Shown piece by piece: positions 41,801-56,100 of a stretch of 61,685 nucleotides of DNA. Source of the DNA: Scenedesmus sp. PABB004 (Eukaryota); assembly GCA_014905635.1 (NCBI GenBank), contig JABVCE010000030.1:372001-433685 (forward strand). Direction: 5' to 3'. The notes beneath the pieces were generated by a model. That model saw only the letters and a program-made list of their open reading frames with translations. It was not told the origin of the DNA and ran no database searches. A program made the translations under genes and the position numbers. Within the stretch, counting starts at the first letter, position 1. Each line of letters opens with the position of its first letter.

Positions 41801-42704
41801 GGCAGACTGCTACGGCGCGCAGCGCGCGTACGACGTGAGCCTGGCGCGGCGGCGACGCGGCGGCGGCGGCGGCCGCGGCGGCGGCGGCGGCCGCGGCGCG
41901 GCGGCGCCGCGCCGCGCGGGGCAGCGCACCGATTGCACCACCACCGCGCTGCTGTCGGCGCGCCGCTCCGCAGGCGGTGCTGCAGCAGGTGCGGAGCCTC
42001 GAGGAGCAGCTCGCGGCGCCGGCCAACGGCGGCGGCGGTGGCGGCGAGGCCGCGGAGCCCGCGGTGCTCGCCGGCCTGCTGGCGCGGCAGGCGGAGCTGC
42101 AGGAGACCAAGGCTGCCGCGCTCGCGGCGCTTCACGCGGCGGGCGACCGGCGGCGCAAGCACGAGGCGGACGCGCACCCCGGCGGTGCGGCCGCCCGGCA
42201 CGCGCCGGCGCGCAGCAGCGCTGCGCTCAGCTGCGCCGCGCGCCGCCCCCGCGCCCGCCGTGAGTCTCACCCGCACGCCACCGCACTGCCGCGGCCAGGC
42301 ACCGACTCGTTTGACCTGGGGCGCCTCGAGGCGGCGGTCGCTGCGGTGCCGGAGCACTCGTACGCGGGCGAGCAGCGCGCGCTGACGCAGCTGAGCCACA
42401 GCCTGCTCTTCCGCGCCGCGCCGCAGCACGGCCACCAGCCGCAGCAGCAGCAGCAGCAGGCCTTCTACGGCAGCTGGCAGCAGCAGCAGTTTGCGAGCTT
42501 CAGCGCCGCCCCGGCGGCCGCGGCGCTGCCGGGCCGCGCGTTCCGGCCGCCGCCGCCGCCGGTGCAGCGCTTCGGCCCCGCGTTTGCGGGCGGCGGCCAC
42601 GCCGTCGTGCTGCGCAGCGTGCTGTGGGAGAGCGCGCACAGCTGCCAGGTGTGCGAGGACACCGACAGCACGATGTACAGCAAGTACATGGCCCTCGGCG
42701 CGAC

Positions 42705-42741
<37 letters not shown>

Positions 42742-42794
42742 GGCGGCGGCGCGGCCAACGGCGCCGGTGGTGCCGGCGGCGCCAGCGGCACGCC

Positions 42795-42833
<39 letters not shown>

Positions 42834-44081
42834 CAAGCGCAAGCACACGCAGGCGCCCGCGCTCGCGCAGCAGCAGCAGCAGCAGCAGCAGCAGTCACAG
42901 CAGTCACAGCTGCAGCCGGCGGCCGCCGAGGCCGCGGCCGCGGCGGCGCGCAGCAACAGCGCCGCCGCGGCCGCGCTCAAGGCGGCGCTCATGGCCAGGA
43001 CGCCGCCGGCCAAGGCGAGCAAGACCGGCGAGGGCGCGAGCGCCGCGCCGCCGCCGGCGTCCCCGGCGGCGGCGCTCGACGCGGCCGCCGCCGCCGCGGC
43101 GAGCGCCGCCGCCGCGCTCGCGGCGCACCAGCTCGGCCAGCCCGCGCCGCGCGGCAAGAAGCAGCAGGGCAGCGTTGGCGGCGGCGGCGGCGGCGGCGAC
43201 GGCTCCAAGCAGCCGCGCCGCAAGAGCCCGTCGCCGCGGCCCAAGCAGGCGGGCGACAGCGGCGGCGAGGGCGCGGGCGGCGGCTCCGCCAGCAAGCAGC
43301 GCCGCAACTCGCGCGGCGCCGCGCTCGCGACGGGCGCCGGCTTTGGCGACCTCTCGAACGGCGCCTTTGCCGTCGGCCCGCCGCCGCCGCCCGCGCCGCA
43401 GAACGTGCCGCTGCCGAGCGGCCTGCTCGGGCGCGTGGCCAGCAGCGGCAGCGTCGGCAGCGCCGGCGCCGCGCGGCCGGCAGCGGCGGCGGCGGCGGCG
43501 GCGACGGCGGCGCCGGCGGCAGCGGAGGCGCGGCGTCGCCCGGCTTCCAGCTGCCGCCCGCCGCAGGCGCGCCGGCACCAGCCGGCGGCTACAACCCGCT
43601 GCAGCACGCGCAGCCGCAGGCGCAGGCGCAGCAGCCGCAGGCGCAGCAGGCGCAGCAGGCGCAGCAGGCGCAGCAGGCGGCGTACCACCAGTTTTATCAG
43701 CAGCCGGCGCCGGCGCAGGGCTACGAGGCGCCGCCGCAGCAGCAGCAGCAGGCGCCGCCGCAGCCCTGGGCCTACCCCGCGCAGCAGGCGCCGCAGCCGT
43801 ACGGCGGCTACGCGCAGGGCTACGCGGCGCCGCAGCCCTCGTACGCGGCGCCTGCGCACTACGGCTACCAGCAGCCGCCGCACGGCTACTCCTACGCCCC
43901 GGCCGCGCGCCCGCCGGCGGGCGCGCCCTACGCGCCGCACGCCCCCGCGTCGCACCCGCTGCGCAGCGTGTCGCCGGGCGGCGCGCCCGCGCCGGGCGTG
44001 CGGCCGCCGCTGCCGCCCGGCGCGCCGGGCGGGCCCGTCGGCGGGCGCCCGCCGCACCCGGGCATCCTGCCGCGGCCGTGA
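38817..44081 (+). CDS. XRN: XRN-family 5'-3' exoribonuclease-like protein, about 11 exons, Q/P/Y-rich C-terminus
   Basis: MGIPGFNTW, DHLYIDMNSVLH, PRKSVMLAIDGPAPLAKLMTQRERR, ALTPGTPFM, GEGEVKI, IVGDDADLI, GNDYLP, WLKGLLWTMSMYF.G.CPDYRWCY, LALLP. The 3' end depends on a probable frameshift near 43480. Confidence 0.88.
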
Positions 44082-44599
44082 GGCGGGCGTGCGGCCGCGC
44101 CAAGGCGTCCCGTCGGGCGGTGGCGGCGGCGGTCTGGCGGCGGGGCGCGCGCCGAGACCCCGCGGCGTGGCCCTGCCAGCACCGCTCGATGTGCGCGCGC
44201 GGCTCGTTGTGCAAACGCGCCCTCTCCCGCGCGCCCGCGCTGCGCCAAGGTGATCATCGTTCTTGGCTCACCGTTCAACACTCGCCCGCACGAGCAGCGC
44301 GGGCCGCGCGCCCGCGCGACGCGCCACCGCGACCTTCGCGCGATCCGCGGGGCCCGCGCCGGGCCGCGGCCGCGCCCCGGCAGCGCCCGCACTGCTGCCC
44401 GACGCGAGCAGCGCGCGCCCGCTTCGCGGCGGACCGCCAGAAGCCGCGGCCCGACCGCGTGCCGCCACCGACAGCGCGTCACTCGGTCCAGCCGCGCGCC
44501 GCGGCTGCCTCCGCGGCAGCGGCGCCGCCGCTGCCGGCGCGCGCTGCGCTGCGCGCACGCGGGCGGCCGCATGGCCCGGCGCCGGTGGCCGCCGCAGGC

Positions 44600-47500
44600 A
44601 TGCCGCTGAGCCAGGCCGCCGGCGGCGCCGATCGGCGGGCCGCCGGCGGCGCCGGCGCCGGCGCGGCGCGGCGGCGGTCGCCGCGCCGCGACGCGCGACC
44701 GCTCGCGGCGTGGTGCCTGCTCGTCGCCGCGCTGCAGCTCGCAGCAGCGGCAGCGCCGGCGCCGGGCGCGCCGGCGGGGCCGCTCTGCAGCGCGACGATC
44801 AACTATGGCGCGAGCGTCGGCGACGCGAGCAAGCGCACGACGGCCGAGGTGCCCATCTTTGTGGGCAGCTTCGACGTGGTCGTGACCGGCGGCAGCGCCG
44901 CCGCCGCGGACCAGGTGCGGACGGCGACGCGCGGCAACGCGCGGCGACGCTCGGCGGCGCGCGCCCGACGGCCCCGCGCGCCCGCCGCCCCCGCGCCGCC
45001 CGCCGGCACGCGCGCGCTCGCGGCGCGCGCGCCAGGATGCCGGCGCGCCTGCGGCCGCCGCGGGCGACGCCTGGGTGCTGGGCTGGGGCTTCACCGCGGG
45101 CGAGCACATCCAGCAGCAGCGCGACGTGTTTGGCGGCGAGGGCATCCGCGACGTCCAGCTCGCCGGCGGCGGCGGCGGGCCGCAGGCACAGGGCGTCGCG
45201 GTGCTGAGTGAGCGCGCGCGCCGCGCGCGCCCGCGCGCGCGCGCGCAGCGCGCTGCGCCCCCGTGCGCGGCCGCCGCCGAGCGCTCGACCCCGCCGCCGC
45301 GCGCTGCCGCCGAGCGCGCAGGCAACGGCAGCGTCCCGCGCGAGGCGACGTTCAGCTTTGTCGGCCGCAAGGGCCCGCCCGGCGCGGCACCCGACGCCGC
45401 GCCGTTCCGCGTGGCGCCGCCGGCGCTGGTGTTTTTGAACAACCAGTACTGCTGGTGAGGACGAGGGAGGGGGAGGGAGAGCACGGCGGGGGGGGGGGGG
45501 ACCGCTGTCAGCGGCGCGGGGCCGCGATCGGCGGCGCGCGCCGCCTGCGCCCACGCGCCCGCCGCCGCCGCCGCGCGCGCAGGCCACTGCTGCGCACCGC
45601 GTCCGGCGCGGGCGGTGCCGGCGCCGGCGCGGCCGGCGCGGCCAACGGCAGCGCCGCGCCGGCGCCGGCGGGCGAGGTCGCGGCGCCGGCGCTGCCGCCT
45701 GCGGCGCGGCCGGCGGAGCTGGTGGTGGAGTACCTGCCCGTTGAGTTTGTGGGCGAGGAGCCCGGCGTGTTTGCCAAGACGCTGACGCAGTTTTACGTCA
45801 AGTGAGAGAGGCGGGCTGGGCGGGCGGGCGCGCGCAGGGGGAGGAGTGCCTCGGTCCGCCCTTCGGCGCGGCGCCGGCGCGCGCACCCTGCGCGCCGCCC
45901 GCGCGCGCCGCAGGGTCAGCAACGCGCGGCCGCCGGGCGCGCCGCCGGTGCTGCTGGACGAGGTGCGGCTGGAGTACTGGTTCCAGGGCCCCGCCGACGA
46001 CAGCGGCGGCAACGCGAGCGCGGGCACCGCGGCGGCGGCGGCGCTCGCGGCGTCGCAGTTCAAGCTCACGTGCAGCGACGCGACGCCGGGCGTCGGTGCG
46101 CGCCGCGCGCCGCCGCGTGGCGCCCGCTGCTGCGCCCGCTGCGCCCGCTGCGCCCGACCCCCGCAAATGGCCAATGGCGCCGCCTGCGCGCGCAGGCTGC
46201 GACGGCATCGCCTGGAACGTCACCGCCGGCCTGCCCGGCGTGTTTGGGGCACGCTTCGTGGTGCGCGCGTGCGGCCGGGCGGGCGCCCAAGGGCCGCGCG
46301 GCGCGAGCTCGCCGCTGCGGCCGCCGCTCACGCGCCCGCCGCCGCCACCGCCGCCGCGGGGCGGCCGCAGCTCAACCTGTGGTTCCCGCCCCGCGCCGCC
46401 AACGCGAGCGGCGCCGCCGCGACGCGCGCCCTCCTCCTGCCCAACGGCACCGCGCCCGGCAGCGCCGGCGCGGCGGCAGCGGCGGCCGCCGCCGCCCCTG
46501 GCGGCCGCGTCGCGGCGCTGTCCGAGTTCGAGGGCATCCTGGCGCTGGACTATCGGCGCTTCTTTGCCGAGCTGCGCGCGCGGGACGACTACAGCTACAT
46601 GGACACGCCCCTCGCGCCCCAGGCGGCCGAGGCGGCGGCCGCGGCGGCGGCGGGCGGGCGGCCCGTGCCCGTGCGGCGGCTGCGCGAGCCCAACCCGCGC
46701 ATCCCGGCGTTCCTCGGCGGCCGCCTCGTGTGGGGCAGCCCGCCCGCGGCGGTGCGCATGGTGCGGGCGCGCGCGCGAGCGGGGGCGCGGGCACGCGGCG
46801 CGCGCCCCGTCGCGGCGCGCCGTGCCCACCGCCGCCTGCCCGCTTGTCGCCCGCGCAGGAGCCCGGCGCCAACGCGAGCGCCGGCGCGGGCGGCGGCGGC
46901 GGCGGCGACGCGGGCGGCCAGCCCGGCGCCTTCCCCCCAGGCTCCTACTGCCAGCGCGGCGCGGACGGCGCGCTGGTGTGCGGCGTGGACATGGTTTACT
47001 GCTGCATCGGCTCAGCGCCCCTCGCCGGCGCGGCGCCGCTCGACTGGCGCGCGCGCCTGCAGGCCAGCGCCGCGGCGGCGGGGTCGGCGAACGGCGGTGC
47101 GGGCGCCGGCGGCGCGGCGCCAGCCGCCGCCAGCGGCAGCAGCGCCGGCAGCGCGGCGCCTGCCGGCGGCGCGGCGCCCGCCGGCGGTGGCAGCGACCTG
47201 GGTGCACCCGGCGGCGGCGCCACGAGCGGTCCCGGCGGCGGGCTGCCGCCCCTTGCGCTGGCGCTGGCGGTCGCGCTGCCGGTGCTCGCCGTCGCCGCGG
47301 CGGGCGTGGTGTTTGCGCTCCTGCGCTGGGCGCGGCGGGAGATCCGGCGCAGCGCCAGCGCCGGCAGCAGCGCCGACGGCGACAGCAGCCTGCTGCCGCT
47401 CTCGCGGGGCACGCCGCCCGCCGGCGCACGTGCCCCCGAGCCGGGCGAGCAGCTGGCGTCGCTGAGCGGTGGCGGCGTGGCGGTGCGCGGCTCGGGCGGA

Positions 47501-48333
47501 GGCCTGCTCAGCGCCCTGCTCAGCCCGCGGCGTGGCGGGCTGGGTGACAGCTGCTCTGACCGCGCCGGGGCGGTGCCGGGCGGCGACCGTTGGTGCGCGG
47601 CGTGGTGCCTCCACGGCAGCGCGGCGGACGAGGAGCAGAGCGACGCCTGCGCGCCAGCAGTGCTCAAGTTGCCGTCCCTGCGGGCGGCTGAGCCGCCCGA
47701 GCTGGCGGCGTTTGGCGGCTTCGGGCCGGCCGGTGCCGCTGGAGGAGCAGAGGCGTGGCGACAGGCGGGCCAGGCCACGCCGGGGCTGTGGCAGGCGGCC
47801 GCGGCGGCGGCTGCGGCGGCGTCGACGACGCACGGCGGCGGCGAGCTCTCGGCGCTGGAGCCCGCGCGCGTGGCGCCACCGCCGCAGCTTGTGCGGCTCG
47901 TGCGGCCACGCGGCCGCACGCTGCCTGACGCCGTGCTGGGGCGGGCCATCGAGCAATACACGGCCTGGCAGCGCCGCCACGAGCTGGCGGAGCAGCCGGG
48001 CGGCGGCTGCGAGGGCGTCGGCTGCGAGGGCGTCAGCTGTGCCGGCACGGGCGCGGGGCCGGAGCCGCAGGACGTCGCCGCACGGTGCGCGCCGGCGTTG
48101 CGGGAGAGCGGGCGGCGGGGTGCTGTCGACGTGCGCGCGCGCGCGCCGTGGCCCCCGCTGCCTGACGCGAGGGCGGCGCACGCGCGCAGGTGCGCCACGT
48201 GGGGCGGGCGCCTGAGCGATGACGCGTTTGGTGAAGAGCTGCTGGATTTTCTCGTCCGGCGCAACCTCTGCCGCGAGATGCCCTGCGCCGACGGCCGCGG
48301 GGGCGGCGGTGCCGGCGGCAGCCCCGGGGCGCT

Positions 48334-48368
<35 letters not shown>

Positions 48369-51300
48369 CAGCGGGGGCAGGGGACGAGGCGATGCTGGAG
48401 CCCCAGCCGGAGGGGGCAGGGTCGGAGCTGGGCGGCGCGGGCGGCGCAGCGCCGGCGGCCACCGCGGCGGTGGAGGCGGCGGTGGCGGCCATCAACGCGG
48501 CCATCGCAGGCCACGCGCCCGGCGGCGCCGGCGCGGGCGCCCGGGCCCCCACTGCGCCGGCCGGCATGCTGGGCGGCGGCGCCGCCGCGGCGTGCGCGCT
48601 GGACGCGCTCATTCCCAGCCCGCCTGGCCCCGATTCTCCGGCCCCCAGCTTCTACAAGGCGCGCGCCGCGCCGCGCCGCGCCCGGCGCCTGGCCGCCGCG
48701 CACGGCTTCCGCGGCCGCCGCACGCTGGCCCTCGCGCCGCGTCACAAGCTCCGCGCGCCCGCCGCGCCCGCGGCGGCGGCCGCAGGCGCTCATGGCCTCC
48801 GGCGGCGTGCTGCACCCGCCCGGCGGGCCGCCCATCCCTCTCAACGTTGACTTTGAGGCCGAGATTGCGCCCCACCTCGGCCGCCTGCTGGGTGCGGCCG
48901 CCTGCTGGGCGCCGCGCGCGCGCCGCGGGGCCTGCCCCACGGCTCCGCCCTGCGCCGGGCGCGAGCGCTGCTGCTAACTGCGCCCACCGCGCCGCGCCCG
49001 CCGCACCCAGGGCGCGGCGGGTTCGGGCACGTCTACGAGGCCACCTGGCGCGGCCGCAAGGCGCGCGCGGCGGGGCCGCCGGCGGCGCGCCCGGCCCGCG
49101 CGCGCGCTGCGACGCGCGCCCCCGCGCCCGCCGCACACGCGGCGCCGCCGCTCGCCCCGCGCCCGCCGCACCAAACCGCCACACACACGCACACACACAC
49201 ACGCACGCACGCGCGCGCCGCAGGTCGCGGTGAAGCTGCTCGCCGTCGACGCGGACGACCCGGCCGTGCTGGACGCGTTCCTCAAGGAGGTCGCCCTCTG
49301 CGCCTGCCTGCGCGGCAGCGACCGCGTGGTCAAGCTGCTCGGCGCCTGCATCGCCGGCGTGCGCCGCGCCCGCAGCGGCGGCAGCGCCGGCGGCAGCACC
49401 GGCGGCGGCGGCGGCGGCGGCGGCGGCAGCGAGCCCGGCGAGCCCGGCGCCGCGCCGGCGGCGGTGCGGCGCGGCGCGAGCGGCGGCAGCGGCACGCCCG
49501 GCACGGACCTCGGCCGGCCGTCGTCGCCGTTTGGCGCGGCGCTGCCTGACGGCGTCGCGGCGACCAGTGCCACGGGCGGCGGCGGCGAGGCGCAGGCGGC
49601 GCCGCCGCCGCAGCAGCAGCAGCTGGCGCTGATCATGGAGCTCGTCCCGGGCGGCAACCTGGCGCAGCGCATCTACAACCCCAGCAAGCGCCGCCTGAGC
49701 TACCTCGAGGCGCGCGCCGCGCCGCGCGCCGCACGCGCCGAGCGCTGCGCCGCGCCGCACGCGCACGCCGCGCCGCGACGGCTGCGTGCGGCCGCAGGTG
49801 CTGCAGATCGGGCTGGACGTCGCGCGGGGGCTCGCGTACCTCCACCCCGCGGTCGTGCACCGCGACATCAAGCCCCAGAACCTCCTGCTCGACGCCGCCG
49901 GCCGCGTGCGCATCGCAGACTTTGGCATCAGCAGGCGAGAGCGCAGGGGCGAGCTGCGTCACGCGACCCAGCGGCCCCGGCTGGGCGGCCGGGCGCGCGG
50001 GCGCGCGGGTGTGTGTGTGCGCGCCGCGCCCACGCGCCGCCGCGGCGCCCGCAGGTTCAAGGACCCACACCGCAGCTACCTGAGCGTGACGCACCAGGGC
50101 GGCACGCCCAACTACATGGTGCGCGGCGCGGCGCGGCGCGGCGGGGCGCTCGGCCAGCGCGGCCGCAGCCCAGCACGGCGCGACCCGCCGGGCACTCCCC
50201 GCGCCGCGCGCGCCCGGCGCTGCGTGCGCCCCGGGGCGGACGGGCCCGCGCCGAGCACGCCCCGCGCGCGCGCGCGGCCGCGCAGGCGCCGGAGCTGTTT
50301 AACGGCACGCGCGTGGACGAGGCGGCCGACGTGTACAGCCTTGGCTGCATCCTCTACGAGTGCCTCGCGCGCCGGCAGCCCTTCGGCGAGCTCGCGGGCG
50401 AGGCCAAGTCGTTCAACGTGCTGTTCAAGGCGCGGCGCGGGCGCGGCGCGGGGGCGGGGGGCGGGGTGGGGGACTCCCCGCGGCCGGGCCGGGCCGGCAG
50501 GGCGCGCGAGCAGGCGCGCGCGGGATGCCTGCCTGCGCGCGGCCGCCGTGACGCCGGCCGCCGCTTTGCTGCCGGCGCCGGCGCAGATCATCGTGGCGGT
50601 GGCCATCAACAAGGAGCGCCCCGTGCTGCCCCCCGACACGCCGCCGCGGCTGGCCGCGCTCATCTCGCGCTGCTGGCTCGAGGACCCGGCGGCGCGGCCG
50701 CGCGTGCCCGCGCTCGCGGCGGAGCTGAGGGAGCTCATTCAGGCGCGCACGCGGGGGGCGGGGCGGGGCGTCGGGCGGCCTGCAGGCGCCGCTGCCCACG
50801 CGCGCCCGCCGGCCGCGCGCGTCTCGCCAGCCGGGCTCCGTCTGTCCCCCACACTCCCCGCCACGCTTGCGCGTCGCACAGGAGGAGCTCGCGGCGCGCA
50901 CCGAGCAGCTCTGCCGCCTGCGGCGCCTCAGCGGCCGGTCCAACAGCGTGCTGACGAACTGCAGCGCGCGCAGCGGCAGCAGCGACAGCAGCGACGGCGC
51001 AGCCACTGCCACGCCCGCGCAGCCGGTCGCAGCGGCGCTCGGCAGCCGCGCGGGCTCGCTCGCCAGCACCGGCAGCAGCAGCGACTTTGCCACGGCCGCC
51101 GACGGCAGCAGCCTGGCGGCGGCGACGGCCGGCGGCGGCGTGCGCGCGCTCAGCGCCACCGCCAGCAGCCGCAGCAGCAGCCGCAGCAGCCTGGCGCCGC
51201 TGGGCAAGAGCAAGTCGGACGTCGCGGCGGCGGCCGCCGCCCTGCACGACCGCGCAGCGCAGGCGGGCGCCCGCGGCGCCGCGCTCGCCGTCGCCGCCAC

Positions 51301-52414
51301 GGGCGAGTCGACCTCGGCGGGGCTGGGCGCTGGCCCGCCGTCAGCCACAAGCAGCCGAGCGCTGGTGCCGGCGGCCGGCCGCCACCCGGGGCGCAGCCCA
51401 AGCCCGTCAGGCGGCACCACGCCCTCGCCCGCGCGCCACGGCCTGCTGGCGCTGCTGCCGCACCGGTGGGCGCAGTGGCAGGCAGGCGGCGACGACGACA
51501 GCTGGCAGCCCGGCGGCAGCGCCGGCGCGGGAGGGGCGGCGCCCGCGCCTGCCCAGCTGGACAGCGGCGGCGGCGGCCGCAGTGCCGCAGAGGGCGCCAG
51601 CAGCGCGCCGGCGTCCCCGCTCGCCGTCCGCGTCGCCAGCAAGGCGTCAGCGCTGGCCTGCCCGCCAACGCCAAGCTGGGGCGCGGGCAGGCGGCCGAGC
51701 CTGGGCCTGCCCCGGCCGGGCGTCGGCGAGGCTGGGCAGCAGGGGGGCGGCTGGGACGGCGGCGGCGGGCCTGCTGACGTGGCAGCAGCAGGCGGCGGCA
51801 GCGACGACAACGCGGGCGGCAGCGGCGCGTGGCCGGCGGGCACCGCGCAGCCAGGTGGGCTGCAGGCCCTGGCGCTGCGGCCCTCGGGCCAGCAGCAGCC
51901 AGGCGGCGTCCCCCGCACAGCCAGCAGCGCCACCCCGCACTGCCGGACGCCTGGTGGCGCTGAGCCGCCGCGCTGCGAGCTCGGCAGCGACAGCAGCGGC
52001 GGCGCCAGCAGCAGCCCGCCGCCCGTGGCGGCCGCGATCAGCACCAGCAGCGCTGGCGACGGCAGCTCCCTGGATTCGGCGGCCGCCTTTGCCACAGCCG
52101 CCAGCTGCTTTGCGACCTCCAGCGCCGCCACCGGCAGCGCGCCGCCGCCGCCGGGCGCTGGCAGTGGCGGGGCGGTCGGCGATGCTGCCGGCGACGCCGC
52201 GGGCGAGGCCACTGGCTCCTACGCCATGCCCCAGGTGTGGAGCACGCCCGCGGCGCGCAGCGCGGCCCCAGCTCCGGCGGCGGCTGCCGCGCCCGGCCGC
52301 AGCGAGAGCGACGGCAGCGGCAGCGCCAGGAGCAGCGGCAGCGGCAGGGCGGCCGCGCGGCTGGGCGCCGGCGCGCCGCTGCCGCGCAAAGTGAGCTTTG
52401 CCGACAGCTCGTGA
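44600..52414 (+). CDS. Receptor-like TKL protein kinase with CBM2-like and CBM3-like ectodomain, single TM, about 17 exons
   Basis: Signal-like [20 protein letters not shown]2-like 44786-45452; CBM3-like about 45716-46745; [26 protein letters not shown] (47252-47323) followed by RWARR; kinase [85 protein letters not shown]. Confidence 0.85.
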
Positions 52415-53110
52415 GGCATTGGCGTGAGAGTTGGAGCACGGATCGGCTGCAACGGTTGGGTCGTGCCTTGCCCGGGTGGTGGCTGTCAGCGGCGGCAAGC
52501 GCGCGCATGAGGGCGCGCGGGCGCAGGAGCGTGCGGCGGGAGTGCTGGACGTGGTTCGTGTGTTCAGCCCGAGGCGCTGCATGTGTCTGTGCACACTGTG
52601 CTGCACACGTGCTGCCGTCGCTGCTGCAGCGCGCAGCGCGCGCGGGAGGCGGCCGGCCGCGACTGCGCAGCGCAGCGCGGCCGGCCGGGCGGTGCGGGGG
52701 CCACAGCGCCTGCGGTCTGCGCAAGACCGCAGCATGCGTCTGTCTGGAGCGCCAGCGGCAGCGGCGGCAGCATCCAGGCACGCGTTGGTGTGGTGCAGAG
52801 CGCGCGCTCTGCTCAGCGCGCACCGGCGCGGCGCCGCGTGATGCAGCTCCTGTGAGGTGCTGAGGTGCTTGCCGCGCAGCACGGCGTCACACACTGCGCG
52901 GCGGGGCCTGCTTCGATGGCTTGGGGGGGGGGCAGCTTTCGAGCGTGCGTCGCGAAAAAAGGGTTTCGGTGCCGGTTGACGGCGGCGACAAGAATTGCCG
53001 CTCCCCGCGTCCCCGGCGCGCGCCGCCCGGCTCGCACAGTCCCAGCAGCAGCCGGCCGGTGTAGGGCGCGCCAGCGGGGAGCCGCGCGAGCGAGAGACGG
53101 CCGGCGAACG

Positions 53111-56100
53111 ATGTTCGAGGGCGCGAAATCGCGCGCTGCGGCCGTCCGGGCCGGCGGCGAGGCATGGCTGGTCGCACGCACGCGGCCCCGGACGCGAAAG
53201 TATCTTGCGCACTACACCAAAGCGCTGATGGAGCAGCTGAGCGCGATGCTGCCAATCACCCTGCTGCAGGCGCGAGGGGGGCCCCGCAGCAGCGCCCGGC
53301 GCTGGCCCGCGACGCCTCCGGAGCGGGCCGGCTGAAGCCCGCCGACGCCAGCGCCGGCACGCCGACGCCGCCGCTGCTCGGCGCTGCTGCTCCGCTCCGT
53401 CAGGTGATCGTCCTCGCCGTGTTCTTCCGCAAATCGAGCACCTCGCCGGGCATGGACGCGGGTGACCGCCGGCGCCGCCGCCCCGCAGCTGCTGGCCGCG
53501 CTGCCGCGCACGCCGCGGCGCGCGCTGACGCCGCGCGCGCGCGCAACCCCCGCCGCCGCCCTCTCGCAGCCGGGCTCATCTCTGCCGTCATCGGCCTGGT
53601 GCTTTTCCTGGACGGGCTGCGCGTCGCGGTCATGCCAATGGCGATGCTGGTCGGCACCGAGCTGCCCAAGCGCCTCCGCCTCGGCTGGGTGCTGCTCGTG
53701 GCCTTCTGCCTCGGCGTGCTGGTCACGTACGCCGAGGTGCGGCGCCGCGGAGCGCCCCCTGCTTCCCCCCTCTCCGCGCCCTTGCTTTGCCGCGCGCGCC
53801 CGCCCACCGCCGCCGCGCCCGCGCGCCCGCGCAGCCCGCGATCGCGGCGCTGCGGCCGCTCGCGCTGCTGGTGGACCCGGTGAGCGCGCCGTACCTGTAC
53901 CACCTGATGAACCAGCAGCAGGAGATCATGGTCCTCTCCGTCGGCATCGGCGTCGGCGTCGCGGCCGTCATCGGAATGCTCAAGTGAGAGGGGTCAACCG
54001 CCCGCGTCCGCCACCGCGTCCGCCGCTGCGTCCGCCGCCGCCGCCGTGCTCGCCGGCGCCGACCCTCCTGCCGCCTCTCTCTCCCCCTGCCCGCAGGTTC
54101 CTCTACGGCATTCCCATCAAGTACCTGATCTTCGGCGCCCTCTTGCCCACTGTGGGCGCGTCGTGCTACATGCAGTGGTGCGGCGCCGGGCGGCGGCGGG
54201 GCGCGTCCGGGGGCGCGCGCCGACCGCCTGCGCCGACCGCCCGCGCCGCCGCCGCCGCCGCCGCCGCAGGGGCAACCCGCACCTGGCGCCCATCCTCGGC
54301 CTGGCCTGGGACTGCGGCGGCGTCACCACGGGGCCGGGTGCGCACCGCGCGGCGCGGCGCCGCGCCGCGCCTCGCGCCCAAACGTGTCCGCCGCGCGCCA
54401 CCCACCGCCGCTGCCGCACGCGCGCCGCCCACCGCCGCGGCCGGCAGTGACGGTCCCGATCCTGCTGGCCCTGGGCGTGGGCGTCATGTCGGCGCAGCGC
54501 GAGAAGGCGATCGCGCTCGCGGCGATCCAGGACGCGGCGATCGACAACTCCGCCGGCAACACGCTCGAGGGCTTTGGTGCGCGCGCTGCGGCGCCCGCGC
54601 GCGCGGCGGAGCGCTGCTCCGCCCCGTGCGGCGGGTGCCGACCCGCCGCCGCCGCGTGTCGCGCGCAGGCGTGGTGACGCTGGCGTCGCTGCTGCCGGTG
54701 CTGGCGGTGGAGGTCATGGCCATCATCACGTCATTCACGTGAGGCCCTGGCCCTTGGAGGGCCGCAGCTGCTGGGCCGGCGCCGCGCGCGCGCGCGCGCG
54801 TGCAGGGCTACGGACCTGCCTGGCGCGCATGTGGGCGTTCGGCCCGGCCCGGCCCAGCCCGTCTGCTGCTGCGCCGCACGTTTGATGCAGGCACTCGTAC
54901 GAGTACGTGCTGGAGCAGTCGAGCCTCGCTGCGGAGCGTCAGAAGACTGCCGTGCCGCCGCTCGCCGACACGTGAGCGCATGCGCGCGCGCGGCGGCCGG
55001 TCCCCGCGCCGCGCGCCAGCGGCGCCGCGGCTGTGCCCGCGGCCGGCGGCCGCGGCTCGCTCCCCGCGCCGACGCGGGCGCACCGCGTGCCGCTCGCTGC
55101 GCAGCTCGCCGCTCAAGGAGGTGATCTTTGGCGTGCGCGCGATCAGGTGCGTGCGGCCCGGGCGGCCGCCCCGGCCAGCGCGGCTCGGCCGCGCCGCGCC
55201 GGCGCCGCGGCCCCGCGTCCCGGCGCGCGAGTGTTCCACGCCCGCCCGCCGCCGCCCGGCCTCGTCCGCCGCGCCCGCAGCCCGCTGATCGTCGCCCTGG
55301 TCTTCCTGGTGCTGGTCGTGCTGCGCGCGCCGCTGCCCGAGGTCTCGTACCTCTCCAAGAGCGATGACGAGGAGGAGGACGAGGCGCAGCGCGGCGCGGC
55401 CGGCCGCGGCGGGCCCAAGGACGCGTCGACGCACGCGGCGCCGCCGGCCGTGGACTGGCAGGACGACACCGCGCGCGACCGCCGTGAGGGCGCGGACGCC
55501 GGCCGGCCTGCGAGGGTGCGGGACGCCGCTGGCCAGCGGCCGCGCGAGGTCGCGCGCGCACGGCCAGGCCCGCCCCGGCGGCCCGCCGCCCCACGCGCTG
55601 CGTGCCGCCCCGCCCGCGCAGCCCCTGATGCCCGAGCGCCCCGCGACGACGCCCGCCAACCCGATGCTGCGCAAGTCGCTCGCCGCCGTGAGCCGCCGCG
55701 CCAGCGCGCGCGCGCACGCGCCTGCGCTCCGGCGTGCTGCCCCGCCTCACCCGCTCCCCTGCCGCCGCGCCTCGCCGGCCCCTCCCTGCCCGGCGCCCGG
55801 CAGGCGATCCTCGCGACCAGCGCGCCGGAGGGCCAGCACGACGTCGAGACCGCGCTGCCGCCGCCGGCCGGCTGGGGCGGCGACGCCGCGCTCGTCGTCG
55901 CCGAGAGCGAGGCGGGCAGCGCCGCGCCGCGCGCCGGCGTGGGCGCCTGCTTCACCAAGTACGGCATCCTGCTGTCAGCCATGCTCATGACGCAGGTGCA
56001 GCGTGGCGCAGCGCGCCGCCGCAGCTTGCCGCCGCCGCGCCACCGCTCACCCGCTGCCCATCGCGGCGCCGCCTCACGCGCTGCCCGCCGCGCCGCCTCA

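Follow-up and report, generated by a model that had tools for sequence, protein, structure and literature searches.

A split gene of Scenedesmus sp. PABB004 predicted to encode a receptor kinase with CBM2- and CBM3-type modules

Introduction

How does a green alga perceive the polysaccharides at its surface? To our knowledge, what is understood of wall-integrity sensing comes almost entirely from land plants and fungi, and we know of no chlorophyte receptor with a known ligand. A locus of Scenedesmus sp. PABB004 (NCBI GenBank assembly GCA_014905635.1) raises this question. It lies on contig JABVCE010000030.1, in a stretch of 61,685 nucleotides (nt; positions 372,001 to 433,685 of the forward strand) that was analysed as a whole and is called the window here; all coordinates below count from its first letter. 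On the plus strand of the window, positions 44600..52414 carry a gene which, after removal of its introns, is predicted to encode a signal-like segment, two beta-rich modules resembling carbohydrate-binding modules (CBMs) of families 2 and 3, a Cys-rich segment, one transmembrane helix and an intact protein kinase. A preliminary description made from the letters of the DNA had proposed just this order of parts and had read it as an independently built receptor for cellulose or the cell wall. Every part could be located, at the positions given below, and the assignment to CBM2-like, CBM3-like, transmembrane and tyrosine kinase-like (TKL) kinase segments proved right at the level of family profiles and predicted folds, while the window's own exons match no CBM family of Pfam.

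On the whole, we regard it as fairly probable that the gene encodes a type-I single-pass receptor kinase of a family of the Chlorophyta, whose two modules would contact a surface glycan and whose kinase would be switched on by trans-activation. What is the evidence for each part, and what has to be set against it?

Gene Model

How can such a gene be read from the DNA at all? The G+C content is 75-83% in every 2-kb bin of the window (positions 1-61685), and because of this stop-free stretches of hundreds of codons occur in all six frames; therefore, lists of open reading frames (ORFs) are uninformative here. Indeed, as the preliminary description had stated, no single ORF shows the architecture: a Pfam search of the 20 stop-to-stop ORFs on the plus strand between 44400 and 52414 gave only two kinase fragments, each in a different ORF, and no CBM. 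Along the same strand the coding frame, as followed by sliding third- versus second-position G+C, switches every 60-400 nt, which is the signature of a multi-exon gene. The bias between third and second codon positions tracked exons well, and the exons were assembled by hand by reading the three frames against GT/GC...AG sites, so that the gene model is built from genomic sequence and from comparison with relatives.

The first model made in this way had 16 exons encoding 1,980 amino acids (aa), with no internal stop, introns of 88-167 nt and CAG at every acceptor. In the final model, 17 exons encode about 1,895 aa, again without an internal stop, and the 16 introns, of 88-255 nt, all end in CAG. 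The latter is probably to be preferred on sequence grounds, since removal of 49359..49613, a probable extra in-frame intron of 255 nt (GT...CAG), leaves eight residues between GAC and LIMEL, exactly as in the relatives P0042 and P0066. The coding-frame signal within this segment is weak. The 1,980-aa model, in which it is coding and gives a Gly-rich insert in the N-lobe of the kinase, is probably wrong, and the insert acts as an in-frame intron. The whole coding span thus runs from the start ATG at 44600 to the stop codon at 52412-52414 (44600..52414, plus strand), and its translation is collinear with relatives by blastp and tblastn. With three relatives as queries, tblastn found only one collinear copy in the window.

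Exon junctions can be checked against related proteins. All eight junctions of the kinase region are contiguous in P0066 or P0042, and those after exons 3-7 of the ectodomain are contiguous in P0002; after exons 1 and 2 the compared stretches scored as gapped. There may be further introns within exon 8, none of which has been recognised so far. At the other end, exon 17 (50882..52414) encodes a Ser/Ala-rich C-terminal tail and the stop; its frame signal is ambiguous and the tail has no Pfam match. A gene on the minus strand across the locus was also considered and was rejected, as none of the seven antisense ORFs has a Pfam match at E<=0.001.

It is to be noted that six of the 16 introns begin with GC (at 48659, 49061, 49710, 49935, 50430 and 50743), mostly in the context AAG/GCGCGC. 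The usual share of GC donors in eukaryotes is about 1%. The rate in this gene is far above it and may be a trait of a genome of 80% GC. At four of the GC-donor junctions the 14 residues around the junction are contiguous in P0066 or P0042, and two of these are contiguous in both. For the donor at 50743 these residues are gapless in P0066, with weak flanking similarity, and P0042 aligns with a gap three residues on. The sixth is the donor of the intron 48659-48785, which connects the exon for ectodomain and transmembrane helix with those for the kinase. Thus, for the annotation of genomes of 80% GC, ORF tracks and direct Pfam scans miss genes of this kind, and GC-AG introns need to be allowed for in gene models.

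A Probable Single Fused Gene

Are the ectodomain and the kinase parts of one gene? Judging from the sequence, they very probably are. Exon 8 (46859..48658) holds the Cys motif, the transmembrane helix and a cytoplasmic linker of about 440 aa, and ends at a GC donor. The intron that follows (48659..48785; CAG acceptor, phase 0) joins it to exon 9 (48786..48891), which encodes the pre-kinase segment. The junction 48658/48786 is phase-consistent and its donor is of the same type as in five other introns of the gene. A search for the same architecture, as the preliminary description had suggested, gave 16 full-length relatives, and all 16 carry both ectodomain and kinase, P0066 of Monoraphidium neglectum among them; with the ectodomain of P0042 as query 15 proteins were obtained, and kinase domains of Pfam were likewise present in all 15. 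Uninterrupted reading frames are seen in P0042 (1,162 aa on a 3,819-nt contig), P0053 (1,312 aa on 4,280 nt) and P0062 (1,157 aa on 4,442 nt). A further case comes from Table S1 of an in-silico survey of chlorophyte receptors (Marciano et al., 2026; Physiol Plant 178:e70703, PMC12757656), in which protein A0A383W283 of Tetradesmus obliquus is listed with 1,878 aa, a signal peptide at 1-23 and a transmembrane segment at 662-684. Its cytoplasmic sequence, as given in that table, runs unbroken across the predicted junction of exon 8, which ends in APSFYK, with exon 9.

Suppose instead that two neighbouring genes lie here; the fusion would then be an artefact of the model, and the ATG at 48792, which is in frame, would be the start of the kinase gene. 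The joining intron has indeed a non-canonical GC donor, and this ATG stands only two codons into exon 9. However, the coding-frame signal continues to about 48700 and restarts at about 48750, and therefore there is no space for a 3′ untranslated region, a promoter and a 5′ untranslated region between the two. Also, other GC-donor introns of the gene are supported by the relatives, four by contiguous junctions and one less cleanly, the T. obliquus protein is continuous over exactly this junction, and no full-length relative is split. The chance of two separate genes is thus very small. Nor do we give much weight to the thought that this copy is in decay or not expressed, which is highly improbable: its tail and linker are long and of low complexity, as could be expected in that case, but 5.7 kb of spliced coding sequence contain no frameshift and no stop, the catalytic motifs and the family-specific motifs of the ectodomain are all intact, and the third-position GC bias follows the exons. 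A single fused receptor-kinase gene is therefore what is discussed below.

CBM2-Type Module

What kinds of domains does the predicted receptor expose outside the cell? The membrane-distal module (module A) extends from Cys63 to Cys206 (44786..45452) and is encoded by exons 1-3. Exon 1 (44600..44914) contains the start codon, the signal-like segment and the first strands of the module, with a tblastn match to P0002 at 44807-44887; exon 2 (45036..45207) contains its W-x-x-G-W-x-F core, which is strongly kept across algal classes; and exon 3 (45322..45454), whose junction is contiguous in P0002, contains its end with the closing Cys. In Pfam, CBM_2 (PF00553) scores above its cut-off of 24 in two of 17 relatives, P0052 (27.7 bits) and P0042 (26.2 bits), and sub-threshold in four more. 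An alignment of module A from ten relatives and the three window exons (A3), used as a profile against solved structures, gave five matches, all of them to CBM2 and three at E<1e-3. The best ones were the chitin-binding domain of ChiC (2rtt, 1.8e-4), the CBM2a of Cex (1exg, 2.8e-4) and 6qfs (2.9e-4).

The fold, which the preliminary description had left to AlphaFold and Foldseek, was predicted on relatives, that of CBM2 on P0042 and that of CBM3 on P0002, and it came out as expected in both. For residues 48-182 of P0042, AlphaFold2 gave a predicted local distance difference test score (pLDDT) of 88.6, and Foldseek placed the CBM2a 6qfs_B of C. fimi first (7.4e-08, target TM-score 0.82), with 3ndy_E at 2.4e-07 and 1exg at 2.2e-05. 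At E<=0.001, six of the ten matches were named cellulose- or chitin-binding modules of CBM2 type; an adhesin domain and chains of chitinases or hexosaminidases made up the other four. In CBM2a modules a disulfide bond connects Cys residues near the two ends, and in A3 all ten relatives have a conserved Cys at either end of the module, with which Cys63 and Cys206 of the window model are aligned. Taken as a structural prediction, module A is a beta-sandwich of divergent CBM2 type that is closed by two Cys residues.

CBM3-Type Module

The second module (module B) covers aa 252-487 (45716..46745) and is encoded by exons 4-7. Exon 4 (45583..45801) comprises a linker and the first strands, exon 5 (45914..46095) the motifs L-x-Y-W-F-x-G-P and C-S-D-A, exon 6 (46196..46260) a further short part of the module, and exon 7 (46371..46751) the motifs RRFF, DYSY and L-V-W-G-S-P-P, with best phmmer matches of 2.7e-27 and 1.1e-26. 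When the read-through of exons 5-7 was compared with 1.84 billion representative proteins by phmmer, 51 matches reached E<=1e-3, and 18 of these reached E<=1e-10. Most of the 51 are exon-sized fragments; the longer ones include P0002, which comprises the ectodomain only, P0023, and the full-length P0042. When longer proteins were searched for homologues by a word-based method, a read-through of the window returned no match.

Since kinase matches swamped the profile of full-length relatives in searches against solved structures, alignments of the ectodomain only were built. The one for module B (A2) consists of the ectodomains of 28 of these matches together with five window exons, including exons 5 and 7. 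It contains sharply conserved blocks, among them L-x-Y-W-F, DYS[FY] and [LA]-[VA]-W-G-x-P-P, which extend across algal classes. As a profile against solved structures, A2 found CBM3 in 12 of 14 matches, with 2wnx at 4.8e-08, 6d5b at 2e-07 and the RsgI-type 4b97 at 6.6e-05. The AlphaFold2 model of P0002 has a pLDDT of about 90 across module B (residues 200-470), and Foldseek gave 39 matches at E<=0.001 for it. The first was the 'biomass sensing' module of an RsgI-like protein of C. thermocellum (4b97, 2.4e-09, target TM-score 0.82), the best 31 of the 39 were all CBM3a/b/c modules or GH9 enzymes bearing a CBM3, and among these 31 the isolated CBM3 modules had target TM-scores of 0.70-0.83. Pfam CBM_3 stays below threshold in all 17 relatives scanned while profile and fold agree on CBM3; therefore, as predicted from these comparisons, module B is a divergent domain of CBM3 type whose loops carry long insertions of low complexity.

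Signal Segment, Stalk, Membrane Helix and Linker

By the Kyte-Doolittle measure, the spliced model has only two hydrophobic segments. The N-terminal one, aa 34-53 (44699..44758; maximum 1.89), is signal-like and is preceded by a long Arg/Gly-rich N-region. The other, aa 616-647 (47237..47332; maximum 2.61), is the sole strong internal one, is followed by basic residues and is taken as the transmembrane helix. Between module B and the membrane lies a four-Cys motif, C-x10-C-x6-CC (46949..47005); in the looser form C-x4-25-C-x4-9-CC, a regular-expression search found it at the ectodomain position of 17 of 19 family proteins, the window model included.

On the other side of the membrane, the linker is mostly of low complexity. 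Upstream of the kinase it contains a motif R-x-x-[ST]-W-x-[GD]-x-[LMV] (48185..48214), which occurs in 13 of the 19 family proteins, again counting the window model, and both in the short forms of Trebouxiophyceae and in the long forms. The R-x-x-[ST]-W motif may be a regulatory phosphosite or a docking site.

Kinase Domain

The pre-kinase segment and the kinase domain are encoded by exons 9-16 (48786..50742). Exon 10 (49011..49060) contributes the glycine loop; exon 11 (49224..49358) the VAVK lysine, in a motif at 49224-49235, and helix C; exon 12 (49614..49709) follows the probable extra intron; exon 13 (49798..49934) carries the catalytic loop HRDIKPQN (49858-49881) and DFG (49918-49926); exon 14 (50055..50118) the activation segment; exon 15 (50286..50429) APE (50286-50294) and helix F; and exon 16 (50587..50742) the end of the C-lobe. 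The ORFs that enclose exons 13 and 15 match PK_Tyr_Ser-Thr (4.7e-15) and Pkinase (3.3e-09) of Pfam, respectively. The catalytic core is thus complete, and its HRD-x-K-x-x-N form is typical of Ser/Thr kinases.

To which group does this kinase belong? Against solved structures, the family profile matched TAK1 best (9e-23), followed by MLK4 (3.5e-19), CTR1 (6.4e-19) and B-Raf (5e-18). The kinase of P0066, to which the C-lobe encoded in the window is 69% identical by blastp, scored 123 bits with TAK1 (1.1e-34) and 112 with CTR1 (1.6e-31), as against 95 with SYMRK, 89.5 with CERK1 and 81 with BIK1. By sequence similarity, then, it is a kinase of the TKL group, of MAP3K type and nearest to TAK1 and CTR1, and it probably stands outside RLK/Pelle, as judged from match scores and not from a phylogeny. 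Such a kinase, nearer to TAK1/CTR1 than to the receptor-like kinases (RLKs) of plants, fits the idea of an independently assembled receptor, and this part of the preliminary description is supported. The role in sensing cellulose or wall that it had attached to the idea is a hypothetical one, with mixed support from the sequence.

What May the Receptor Sense?

If these parts are put together, a working scheme can be imagined. Outside the cell would stand a CBM2-type sandwich, a CBM3-type sandwich and a small four-Cys stalk above the membrane; inside, a long linker with the R-x-x-[ST]-W-x-G motif, an intact TKL kinase of Ser/Thr type and a Ser/Ala-rich tail. The two modules would contact a polymeric glycan of the cell surface, belonging either to the alga's own wall or to material in the environment, for which cellulose, a chitin-like polymer or another beta-glycan would be candidates. 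A multivalent glycan surface might then cluster or reorient receptors, and the clustered kinase domains might trans-activate each other and start a MAP3K-like cascade. The logic would be that of the clostridial RsgI sensors, which also hold a CBM3-like module outside, except that the output here would be a eukaryotic kinase.

Going further, the family might be an ancient glycan-sensing receptor kinase of the Chlorophyta, in which CBM2 and CBM3 modules, probably from bacteria, were combined with a MAP3K-like kinase, making up a counterpart of RsgI with a Phe-modified binding face and a phosphosite at R-x-x-[ST]-W-x-G. We offer this extended picture tentatively and hold it to be doubtful. If the scheme is true, a wall- or substrate-sensing system would have arisen independently of every wall-integrity receptor of land plants; and if binding is true, this would be a convergent invention of a polysaccharide receptor, with sensor modules that probably came from bacteria. 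In any case the family offers a concrete candidate, with ectodomain folds whose ligands are well studied, a kinase of MAP3K type and conservation across classes.

Several observations weigh against a glycan receptor of this kind. The gene model is predicted from genomic DNA and relatives, the putative signal peptide has an unusual N-region of 33 aa, and the folds were predicted on P0002 and P0042 instead of the window's own protein. Where the preliminary description had pointed to PF00553 and PF00942, Pfam gave no CBM match even at E<=10 in ten window exon translations, and none in the 20 ORFs; as for relatives, the scan succeeded for CBM_2 in the two cases mentioned above and failed for CBM_3, which stays below its cut-off of 22.4 in 17 of 17, seven of them scoring 13.9-18.9 bits. 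The window's own module B, as the exon 5-7 read-through, had five phmmer matches among solved structures, all at E>=0.2 and none of them to a CBM. For module A, the top sequence match (2rtt, from ChiC of Streptomyces) is a domain that binds chitin and no cellulose binder.

The binding faces have to be considered as well. W17, W54 and W72 of Cex are, as we take it, the three exposed Trp of its cellulose-binding face, and the planar strip of CBM3a presumably consists of Asp/His, Tyr, Arg and Trp. When profile A3 is aligned with 1exg by HMMER, W54 falls on a conserved Phe and W72 on a variable column, in which the window has Ser; the position of W17 is outside the alignment, and counting back from the conserved Phe leads to Thr/Ala. 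When module B is aligned with 2wnx and 6d5b, the Asp in C-S-D-A stands opposite an Asp, and the second Phe in RRFF opposite the surface Trp of 6d5b, but at the His/Trp and Arg positions the CBM3 face is not kept. Finally, Ostreococcus tauri is a wall-less alga. A receptor resembling module A is nevertheless listed for it in a supplementary table of the survey (Marciano et al., 2026), which argues against sensing of the cell's own cellulose. Because the aromatics of the binding faces are mostly lost and because of this relative in O. tauri, we put the chance that the CBM-type ectodomain senses a glycan, as far as sequence comparison allows, slightly short of even, and consider it distinctly unlikely that the glycan would be cellulose.

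What else could the two modules do? They may have lost carbohydrate binding altogether and serve as protein-binding or structural beta-sandwiches, in which case the receptor would sense a protein or peptide or act in adhesion. This would go well with the loss of most of the face aromatics assumed above (the CBM3 face keeps one aromatic position and one Asp), with a CBM_3 score under the Pfam cut-off in every relative, with the large loop insertions that break up module B, and with the presence of the adhesin CLIPPER domain (9ifr) among the Foldseek matches of module A at E<=0.001. On the other hand, the family cores of both modules are strongly kept across algal classes, a Phe occupies the W54 position of Cex and another Phe is aligned to a surface Trp of 6d5b, and RsgI sensors whose CBM3-like modules are divergent too are still described as polysaccharide sensors, according to PDB titles and abstracts (PMC10328401, PMC6852018). 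Loss of binding is thus unlikely in our estimate, though to be taken seriously.

The other possibility is that a glycan is sensed and that it is chitin-like or another beta-glycan instead of cellulose. The best profile match of module A is a chitin-binding domain, as said, and its Foldseek matches include 2rtt and 2czn, both chitin-binding, besides the chitinase and hexosaminidase chains. Walls of Chlorella type contain glucosamine polymers, which could serve as such a ligand. Yet the cellulose-binding CBM2a modules 1exg and 6qfs are near-equal in the profile search and CBM2a comes first by fold, and every CBM3 match is a module of a cellulosome or a cellulase. A non-cellulosic ligand of this sort seems to us rather improbable. 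The glycan-contacting receptor set out at the beginning of this section is the reading with which we go on.

Surroundings of the Gene

Some features of the locus stand apart from the question of function. Short runs of CA/GT dinucleotides occur in two of the kinase-region introns (49180-49215 and about 50008-50020) and are among the few low-GC stretches of the gene. In green algae TGTAA acts as the poly(A) signal. It occurs twice per strand in the 61.7 kb of the window and not near the stop codon, and is uninformative as a marker of the gene end here; Scenedesmus sp. PABB004 may use another poly(A) signal. The gene that follows downstream, at 53065-53880 on the plus strand, encodes a membrane protein of DUF1538 type (Pfam PF07556, 1.9e-12, 47.4 bits, cut-off 22.6). 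Upstream, the plus-strand ORF 41839-44250 is rich in runs of Gln and of Ala and gave no Pfam match at E<=0.001. It probably belongs to another gene, which would end near 44250 and thus leave about 350 nt up to the ATG of the receptor.

Relatives in Green Algae

How widely is the receptor distributed, and has it been seen before? The spliced model is collinear with 12 relatives by blastp, being 46% identical to P0002 over 518 aa and 43% identical to the ectodomain of P0066, and at least two classes are represented among the relatives, namely Trebouxiophyceae and Chlorophyceae. Deposited homologues exist in Chlorella variabilis (CHLNCDRAFT_138610, P0059), Micractinium conductrix (P0058, 'serine threonine kinase'), Prototheca wickerhamii (QBZ16_003952, P0061), Monoraphidium neglectum (P0066, 'Nodulation receptor kinase') and Auxenochlorella protothecoides (P0064, 'Dual specificity protein kinase shkC'); such names were given automatically and refer to the kinase alone, and those of the last two are misleading because they are based on kinase similarity only. 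Among 15 homologues, precomputed Pfam annotations give PF00942 in five and PF00553 in two. The deposited homologues share with the window model a collinear ectodomain, the pre-kinase segment and the kinase, whereas the forms of Trebouxiophyceae differ in their length (about 1,150-1,300 aa), in shorter linkers and in the lack of a long Ser/Ala tail, and their ectodomains are 26-30% identical to that of the window model. The deposited model of P0066 is without most of the CBM2-type module and contains an extra stretch where the window gene has an intron.

The preliminary description knew of no characterised receptor with this architecture. That much stands, in so far as searches of the freely readable full-text literature (papers available by subscription only being outside them) turned up no experiments on a receptor of this kind, and a full-text search for CHLNCDRAFT_138610 found no paper; but homologues from the five genera just named are deposited, and the family has in part been described before, as CBM_2, CBM_3 and RsgI4-like annotations in tables of the survey already cited, which catalogues 736 putative chlorophyte RLKs in silico (Marciano et al., 2026). 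Its main text mentions 'cellulose-binding modules' once, among the ectodomains of C. vulgaris, and CBMs in general; RsgI, anti-sigma factors, Raf, a tandem of CBM2 and CBM3 and the kinase subfamily are not mentioned in that main text. By Foldseek, its Table S2 describes Auxenochlorella ectodomains as RsgI4-like, as 'crystalline cellulose-binding protein' and as similar to 6d5b (CBM3). Its Table S5, on regions excluded from the authors' analysis, has CBM_2 and CBM_3 in the same proteins of A. protothecoides and one CBM type each for Coccomyxa, O. tauri, T. obliquus, Ostreobium and C. vulgaris. These entries add Mamiellophyceae and Ulvophyceae, with one CBM annotation each, as putative members of the family.

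Receptors of the survey such as A0A383W283 and, in A. protothecoides, A0A1D1ZQR8 and A0A087SE27 are like the window gene in having, as tabulated there, a signal peptide, CBM2/CBM3-type regions, a transmembrane segment and a kinase. With linker blocks and the pre-kinase segment in common, A0A383W283 reads in these tables as the orthologue of the window gene. The surveyed family is known, from this source, by in-silico cataloguing only. By its sequence, the gene described here is accordingly a new member of a chlorophyte family of CBM2+CBM3 receptor kinases catalogued in silico, with its closest named relatives in Monoraphidium and Tetradesmus.

Comparison with Known Systems

How does the predicted receptor compare with systems that are understood better? 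Wall-integrity receptors of land plants include CrRLK1L/FERONIA with malectin-like ectodomains, WAKs, and leucine-rich repeat and lectin RLKs, and their kinases belong to RLK/Pelle. Like the window gene product, they are single-pass kinases whose ectodomain, of a carbohydrate-binding type, faces the wall. They differ in having other ectodomain folds, and RLK/Pelle kinases as opposed to the TAK1/CTR1-like one of the alga. TAK1 (MAP3K7), CTR1, MLK and B-Raf, which are the best matches of the family kinase among solved structures, are in turn cytosolic and have neither a transmembrane segment nor an ectodomain.

The clostridial RsgI anti-sigma-I factors (4b97, 4b9p, 4b9c, 4b96) combine, like the window gene product, an extracellular CBM3-type module, a single transmembrane segment and a cytoplasmic signalling part. 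However, they are bacterial, their sensor is C-terminal while that of the algal receptor is N-terminal, and they have no CBM2 module. Their output, as described in the abstracts of two reports, is release of a sigma factor after proteolysis and not phosphorylation (PMC10328401, PMC12203970). The cytoplasmic part encoded in the window is a kinase and its sensor is N-terminal, which places it outside the RsgI type, and it is the CBM3-like fold of the sensor alone that the two have in common. By analogy, then, the resemblance between the algal receptor and RsgI is one of working logic, a polysaccharide-binding type of module outside and a signalling part inside, and not one of membership.

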